Positions 33,001 through 34,435 of a stretch of 34,435 bases of DNA are shown here, piece after piece. Each line of letters opens with the position of its first letter. Position 1 is the stretch's first letter. The DNA is from a virus. Its lineage: Duplodnaviria > Heunggongvirae > Uroviricota > Caudoviricetes. The position numbers were made by a program. Location of the stretch: IMG/VR virus record IMGVR_UViG_2529293069_000011, one strand, 5' to 3'.

Positions 33001-34435
33001 CACCAGGTTGATATTGATTCAGAGGTATAAAACGAATGAGTACAGCACTCGCAACGCTGGCAGGGAAGCTGGCTGAACGTGTCGGCATGGATTCTGTCGA
33101 CCCACAGGAACTGATCACCACTCTTCGCCAGACGGCATTTAAAGGTGATGCCAGCGATGCGCAGTTCATCGCATTGCTGATCGTCGCCAACCAGTACGGT
33201 CTTAATCCGTGGACGAAAGAAATTTACGCCTTTCCTGATAAGCAGAACGGCATCGTTCCGGTGGTGGGCGTTGATGGCTGGTCCCGTATCATCAATGAAA
33301 ACCAGCAGTTTGATGGCATGGACTTTGAGCAGGACAATGAATCCTGCACATGCCGGATTTACCGCAAAGACCGCAATCATCCGATCTGCGTTACCGAGTG
33401 GATGGATGAATGCCGCCGCGAACCATTCAAAACCCGCGAAGGCAGAGAAATCACCGGACCGTGGCAGTCGCATCCCAAACGGATGTTACGGCATAAAGCC
33501 ATGATTCAGTGTGCCCGTCTGGCCTTCGGATTTGCTGGTATCTATGACAAGGATGAAGCCGAGCGCATTGTCGAAAATACCGCATACACTGCAGAACGTC
33601 AGCCGGAACGCGACATCACTCCGGTTAACGATGAAACCATGCAGGAGATTAACACTCTGCTGATTGCCCTGGACAAAACATGGGATGACGACTTATTGCC
33701 GCTCTGTTCCCAGATATTTCGCCGCGACATTCGCGCATCGTCAGAACTGACACAGGCCGAAGCAGTGAAAGCTCTTGGATTCCTGAAACAGAAAGCCTCT
33801 GAACAGAAGGTGGCTGCATGACACCGGACATTATCCTGCAGCGTACCGGGATCGACGTGAGAGCTGTCGAACAGGGGGATGATGCGTGGCACAAATTACG
33901 GCTCGGCGTCATTACAGCTTCAGAAGTTCACAACGTGATAGCAAAACCCCGTTCAGGAAAGAAATGGCCTGACATGAAAATGTCCTACTTCCACACCCTG
34001 CTGGCTGAGGTTTGCACCGGTGTGGCTCCGGAAGTTAATGCCAAAGCACTGGCCTGGGGAAAACAATACGAGAACGACGCCAGAGTCCTGTTTGAGTTCA
34101 CCTCCGGCGTGAATGTTACTGAATCCCCGATTATCTATCGCGACGAAAGTATGCGTACAGCCTGCTCTCCCGATGGTTTATGCAGTGACGGCAACGGCCT
34201 TGAACTGAAATGCCCGTTTACTCCCGGGATTTCATGAAATTCCGGCTCGGTGGTTTCGAGGCCATAAAATCGGCTTACCTGGCCCAGGTGCAGTACAGCA
34301 TGTGGGTGACGCGAAAAGATGCCTGGTACTTTGCCAACTATGACCCGCGTATGAAGCGTGAAGGACTGCATTATGTCGTGGTTGAGCGGGATGAAAAGTA
34401 CATGGCGGGTTTTGACGAGATGGTGCCGGAGTTCA

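Follow-up and report, generated by a model that had tools for sequence, protein, structure and literature searches.

Is the exo gene of a lambdoid prophage in Escherichia coli TW06591 really broken, or does the one-base gap that interrupts its reading frame belong to the draft sequence? The question is raised by the stretch of DNA analysed here (34,435 nucleotides, called the window below), which is the entire draft contig AKLT01000032.1 of assembly GCA_000267125.1. This contig begins in a tail gene and stops inside exo, both of which lie in repeated modules of lambdoid prophages, and the missing base is situated 214 bp from its end. Comparison with relatives suggests that the missing C is probably an artefact, specific to this site, of the sequencing or the consensus of an early draft assembly, in which case TW06591 would carry an intact 226-aa lambda-type exo in the ordinary gam-bet-exo module of a lambdoid prophage. 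That the base is absent, and that its absence recurs in draft data, is directly observed, and a technical cause is what we infer.

As deposited, exo (red-alpha) is an ATG-started ORF of 139 codons at 33818..34237 on the plus strand, of which 135 codons are native and the last four, encoding PGIS, are aberrant and lead to a premature TGA at 34235..34237 (+); the submitter annotated this truncated product as EIO48827.1. Alignment to lambda (J02459) and to the Stx2a phage F723 gives a single gap, namely one C of TTTACCTCCCGGG at 34221/34222, and the site at 34220..34223 (+) reads ACTC here against ACCTC in all relatives aligned. The deletion form of the site is ACTCCCGGG, and the form in intact exo is ACCTCCCGGG. 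The sequence-only reading had already noticed that the N-terminal part ends at this TGA, that the remainder goes on in another frame and that the gene is one C short of lambda exo, all of which the alignments bear out; its placing of the missing base in a C-run was inaccurate, since the site is a CC dinucleotide with no long run. The remainder of exo lies in its native frame at 34210..34435 (+) and is open to the contig end, which falls at nucleotide 619 of the 681 of exo. This downstream frame has its first ATG at 34210 (MPVY, followed by Ser136 onward) and another at 34234-34236; the latter is Met140 of native Exo and overlaps the stop created by the frameshift as ATGA. The equivalent downstream ORF has 95 aa in locus L004, and in L041 and L005 gene callers predict the C-terminal ORF from the ATG of 34234 (87 aa or partial). 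The deposited sequence lacks a continuous reading frame of some 226 codons across the whole nuclease domain, and restoring a single C brings it back (P0019).

At the protein level, residues 1-135 of the product correspond to lambda Exo (PDB chains 6m9k/1avq, E=1.8e-90) with one substitution, T90V. The truncated product matches the YqaJ family (PF09588) with 73.3 bits (cutoff 22) over profile positions 2-116 of 150, and the remainder covers positions 116-149, the frame breaking inside the nuclease domain at position 116 of 150. Compared with lambda Exo (PDB 1AVQ, 3SM4 and 6M9K; PF09588), the frame of the window breaks after Thr135, so that Arg137 is out of frame, as is the final third of the YqaJ domain. 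The catalytic or DNA-contact residues of Exo are Trp24, Arg28, Glu85, Asp119, Lys131 and Arg137 (PMC7496540), of which the first five are present in the truncated product as in lambda and Arg137 is encoded in the shifted frame only.

An imperfect inverted repeat, CCGGGATTT-CATG-AAATTCCGG, is located at 34224..34245 (unstranded) and begins 3 nt 3' of the deletion. It belongs to a local sequence variant common to all three carriers of the deletion described below, and it forms a stem in the minimum-free-energy fold of a region that is overall not unusually stable (z=-0.81). One may speculate that this repeat is relevant to the missing C. A templated mutation by correction of a quasi-palindrome was considered and rejected on inspection, because the deletion brings no improvement to the nearby inverted repeat.

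The other genes of the module are in order. The sequence-only reading had taken bet and gam as intact, and both are found at full length on the plus strand: gam at 32734..33030 in its 98-aa GamS form (213.9 bits over the full Gam profile), and bet at 33036..33821, encoding a RecT-family annealase of 261 aa (RecT, 115.6 bits). The three genes gam, bet and exo are adjacent and co-oriented in the arrangement of the lambda Red module, and the order cIII-kil-gam-bet-exo is likewise that of lambda. To call the region lambda-identical, as had been done, is however wrong: at the nucleotide level exo is 95.8%, bet 96.9% and gam 99.0% identical to its lambda counterpart, Bet differs from lambda Bet by one amino acid, and the module is of the type found in the Stx2a phages F723 and P27. 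The gam and bet genes are 100% identical in nucleotides to those of F723, and exo is 99.5% identical to that of the P27/F723-type Stx2a phages (AP012533, KU238067), from which it differs by 2 SNPs and the gap. Unlike the window, these phages have an intact exo of 681 nt; the compared part of the window has no stx genes, and its late genes are of another type. In both the window and F723 the N-terminal extension of GamL, the 138-aa form in lambda, is out of frame (32613-32765 against 32734-33030 in the window), and the sole open gam frame is that of the 98-aa GamS. With the C restored, the 226-aa Exo of the window is a common allele of E. coli prophages, found intact on 43 contigs, and the intact F723-type allele is found on at least 1,000 contigs.

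The nearest relatives of the contig are different in its different parts. Window 1-20835 aligns gap-free, at 99.966% identity, with the prophage that occupies the ybhC (lambda att) site in the O157:H- strain 493/89; window 22928-28300 shows 28 mismatches and zero gaps against finished relatives; and window 27934-34435 aligns over 6,502 bp with contig AARDYH010000048.1 of GCA_011901155.1 (L046) with 0 mismatches and 1 gap, which is the missing C. This closest relative has an intact exo encoding 226 aa, and its prophage runs on to an integrase beside mlrA. The joining of segments 1-20835 and 27934-34435 may be either a natural mosaic or a draft mis-join across shared nin-region repeats. Over about 32.7 kb compared with its nearest relatives, the TW06591 contig contains no further one-base indel, on which ground general sloppiness of the assembly was rejected as an explanation of the gap.

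How frequent is the deletion elsewhere? A 61-mer spanning it has zero full-length exact matches in 5,426 finished E. coli genomes, where the best full-length matches are 98.4% identical, that is, they differ by the single gap. A whole-gene search shows that this set holds about 5,170 copies of exo, which reaches up to 5 copies per genome. Among phage records, 90 match the 61-mer, all of them with the gap, and none has the deletion. A 28-mer across the deletion finds no match among 185,579 GTDB species representatives or in JGI metagenomes, and IMG/VR gave one occurrence, on a contig of the draft genome of E. coli 3.2303 (AFAE02000011.1, protein EII77526.1). A further carrier, contig 290 in the Logan assembly of run SRR058106, was found by exact look-up of the hypothetical truncated products of other common N-terminal exo alleles; for the commonest (lambda-type) allele, such exact-sequence look-up gave no truncated form. 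The carriers are then three datasets, namely the window, 3.2303 and SRR058106, all of them drafts and all early (2010-2012), a dating that is taken from the accession series only. A literature search on TW06591, 3.2303, AKLT/AFAE and SRR058106 found nothing relevant.

Each carrier was compared with its own intact relatives. The contig of 3.2303 aligns with the finished genome of O157:H16 strain 98-3133 over 16,091 bp with 0 mismatches and 2 one-base gaps, one being the missing C, situated 5.7 kb from the contig end, and the other a missing T 27 nt from the contig end. The contig of SRR058106 aligns with the finished genomes of MS 85-1 (CP146650, in which exo is intact) and MFDS1019527 over 13,380 bp with 1 mismatch, the missing C and a change from A4 to A3, and shows two extra A-run differences against MS 85-1 only. 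Thus two of the three carriers have single-base deletions besides the missing C. The exo sequences of the three carriers differ at many sites, among them SNPs that lie 43-91 bp away from the deletion, which indicates that the deletion events are independent; all known exo alleles agree for at least 16 bp on each side of the missing C. Inheritance by shared ancestry was considered for 3.2303 and the window, which share the marker G at exo nucleotide 592, and was rejected because finished genomes often have G592 (381 records) and because the flanks of every carrier match those of its own intact relatives. Short patches of gene conversion from a common donor were also rejected: every lineage would require a patch of less than about 105 bp, and the searched collections contain no donor. 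As to the finished genomes used here, MS 85-1 (L042) differs from the near-identical L043 and L041 at two A7/A8 runs (L041 positions 667 and 2229), one of which shortens an annotated DUF4041 gene (3126-4349 against 2847-4349); these differences may be homopolymer errors in a finished genome or real variation. In addition, the mlrA-site prophage of 3.2303 (L006, 1-8300) and of 98-3133 (L044) is a remnant, in which a SASA esterase, TerB and a tRNA region are joined almost directly to a truncated N and the Red module, and where the annotation lists the genes for Q, N and the methyltransferase as partial.

What favours an artefact is that the change is recurrent, private each time, accompanied by indels only or mainly, and confined to drafts. 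Differences that consist solely or mostly of one-base indels are a signature of consensus error, unlike that of evolutionary divergence. A parallel is offered by another exo frameshift near the 3' end of the gene, at exo nucleotide 623, where A6 is reduced to A5 (GAAAAAATGG to GAAAAATGG) in the IMG/VR loci L017 (at about 6498) and L030, both from isolate genomes; none of the 4,920 copies matched in finished E. coli genomes has it. Like the missing C, it recurs in unrelated strains and never in finished genomes, and it is probably a homopolymer sequencing error. It had been considered as a positive control for real frameshift alleles in finished genomes, for which its absence there disqualifies it, and it is kept as a parallel example only. 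The two sites differ in that this one is a 6-base homopolymer, a classic site of sequencing error, whereas the missing C belongs to a CC dinucleotide beside CCCGGG and the imperfect hairpin. Such a dinucleotide, for which no error mechanism can be named, counts against the artefact reading, and so does the otherwise indel-free contig, from which the assembly appears generally accurate. Moreover, a contig with the same local sequence (L047, AEZU02000017.1), whose assembly has a neighbouring accession and would come from the same batch, is wild type at the site, and hence any error is not deterministic, which again speaks against an artefact. The real decay of prophage genes, exo included, weighs on the same side.

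The deletion might also be real and private to TW06591, with exo pseudogenised in the course of routine prophage decay, a reading which we regard as unlikely but serious. The deposited sequence has the lesion, whose truncated product was annotated by the submitter; the contig is free of other one-base indels against its relatives, and an IS30 insertion that looks private to the TW06591 prophage is evidence of some decay. Other lesions of exo exist as well. One is an IS629-like insertion of about 1.3 kb with a 7-bp target duplication (IMG/VR locus L024, 9112-10419), and another is a one-base A deletion at exo nucleotide 226 in phage phiSTEC801-Stx1a (PQ600365, L002), where exo is annotated as two CDS; a third locus (L021) has an in-frame 3-bp deletion at exo nucleotides 61-63. 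Furthermore, the Red systems of prophages Sp3 and Sp15 of E. coli O157 Sakai are disrupted (Asadulghani et al. 2009, PMC2669165), and if the deletion were real, it would be the same phenomenon, a lambdoid Red module minus one component. The Sakai lesions are however in finished genomes, while the missing C is found in drafts only and is absent from otherwise identical relatives. What is more, the identical base is gone, privately, from two unrelated drafts on backgrounds that are intact elsewhere, and the deletion occurs in 0 of the roughly 5,170 finished exo copies; real mutation would not be expected to strike one non-repetitive base in three independent recent events that are all found in draft data. 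The sequence-only reading had left the choice between a Red system without Exo and a sequencing error; its anatomy stands, and the comparative evidence favours error over a real Exo-less Red. The same counts bear on the notion that the missing C marks a real recurrent hotspot, at which Exo would be turned off or split through the ATGA coupling and Bet and Gam would reversibly act without the exonuclease. We hold this to be extremely improbable; with three independent private events a real hotspot should show among the finished copies, and a real recurrent mutation should also show in later read-based assemblies, and neither is the case.

It is equally far-fetched that exo is a split or recoded gene, in which a -1 frameshift at TTT-ACT-(T)CC restores Exo or a restart at the ATGA (34234-34237) gives an 87-aa C-terminal fragment that would join the N-terminal one in an active enzyme. 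The stop and Met140 do overlap there, with a weak GGGA 4 nt upstream, the two ORFs combined cover every residue of Exo, and gene callers predict the C-terminal ORF. Nevertheless, the codons CCG TTT ACT CCC GGG ATT TCA TGA contain no in-frame slippery heptamer X XXY YYZ, and the downstream RNA is, as noted above, not unusually structured, with folds of equal or better stability in 41 of 200 shuffles; with neither a slippery site nor a significant downstream structure, programmed frameshifting was rejected. Neither is the split arrangement conserved, the gene being uninterrupted in every close relative, and a break within the YqaJ nuclease domain makes an active split enzyme unlikely. It is also very unlikely, if slightly less so, that near-identical exo copies from several prophages of one genome were collapsed or fused into a chimeric consensus at the contig end, the gap arising from merged reads. 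In its favour, the contig stops in a multi-copy gene shortly after the deletion, and its late region (1-20835) matches the ybhC-site prophage, while the early region matches the mlrA-site prophage of another assembly. Against it, the known exo alleles do not differ within at least 16 bp on either side of the site, so that merging them should create no gap, the last 6.5 kb are identical to one real prophage (L046), and in 3.2303 the same gap is found 5.7 kb away from the contig end. A site-specific artefact is accordingly the explanation that we prefer, with the qualification that the named points against it leave it probable and not more.

Artefact or real, the finding is an ordinary one. If the missing C is an artefact, the Red module of TW06591 would simply be intact and ordinary; a real deletion would add one more case of a decaying prophage gene, as already documented in E. 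coli O157 prophage pools. In that event the product keeps Glu85, Asp119 and Lys131 and loses Arg137 together with the last 40% of the protein; single-strand annealing by Bet and the anti-RecBCD function of Gam could remain, and the prophage's own 5'-3' exonuclease would be gone. The near-identical Exo of other resident prophages might complement the loss, and from established lambda biology one would expect double-strand-end recombination to need the Exo of those prophages. For practice, frameshifts at the same base in early drafts of unrelated genomes can mimic shared alleles, and the truncated proteins that result stay on in protein databases (EIO48827.1 and EII77526.1 being the entries concerned here). 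Where intact Red systems are counted, or strains natively proficient in recombineering are picked, drafts need to be checked against near-identical finished genomes.

Some minor features of the contig may be recorded. The IS30-family insertion occupies 21710-22927, with a transposase ORF at 21717-22868 (-) encoding 383 aa with HTH_38 and rve domains, and is flanked by a gene for an HNH-AP2 endonuclease (20894-21541) on one side and by a large nin-region ORF on the other; this insertion of about 1.2 kb is missing from close finished relatives, so that it looks private to the TW06591 prophage. An ORF of 617 aa in the nin region, at 23153-25006 (+), lies on the strand opposite to its neighbours and is without a match in Pfam or PADLOC; related prophages conserve it as the 'hypothetical protein' WP_000612805.1, and it could be a moron or a defence cargo gene. 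In ninG, at 20770-20779, a 9-bp in-frame indel against strain 96_1414B falls within a short CTTTTCTGC-like repeat.
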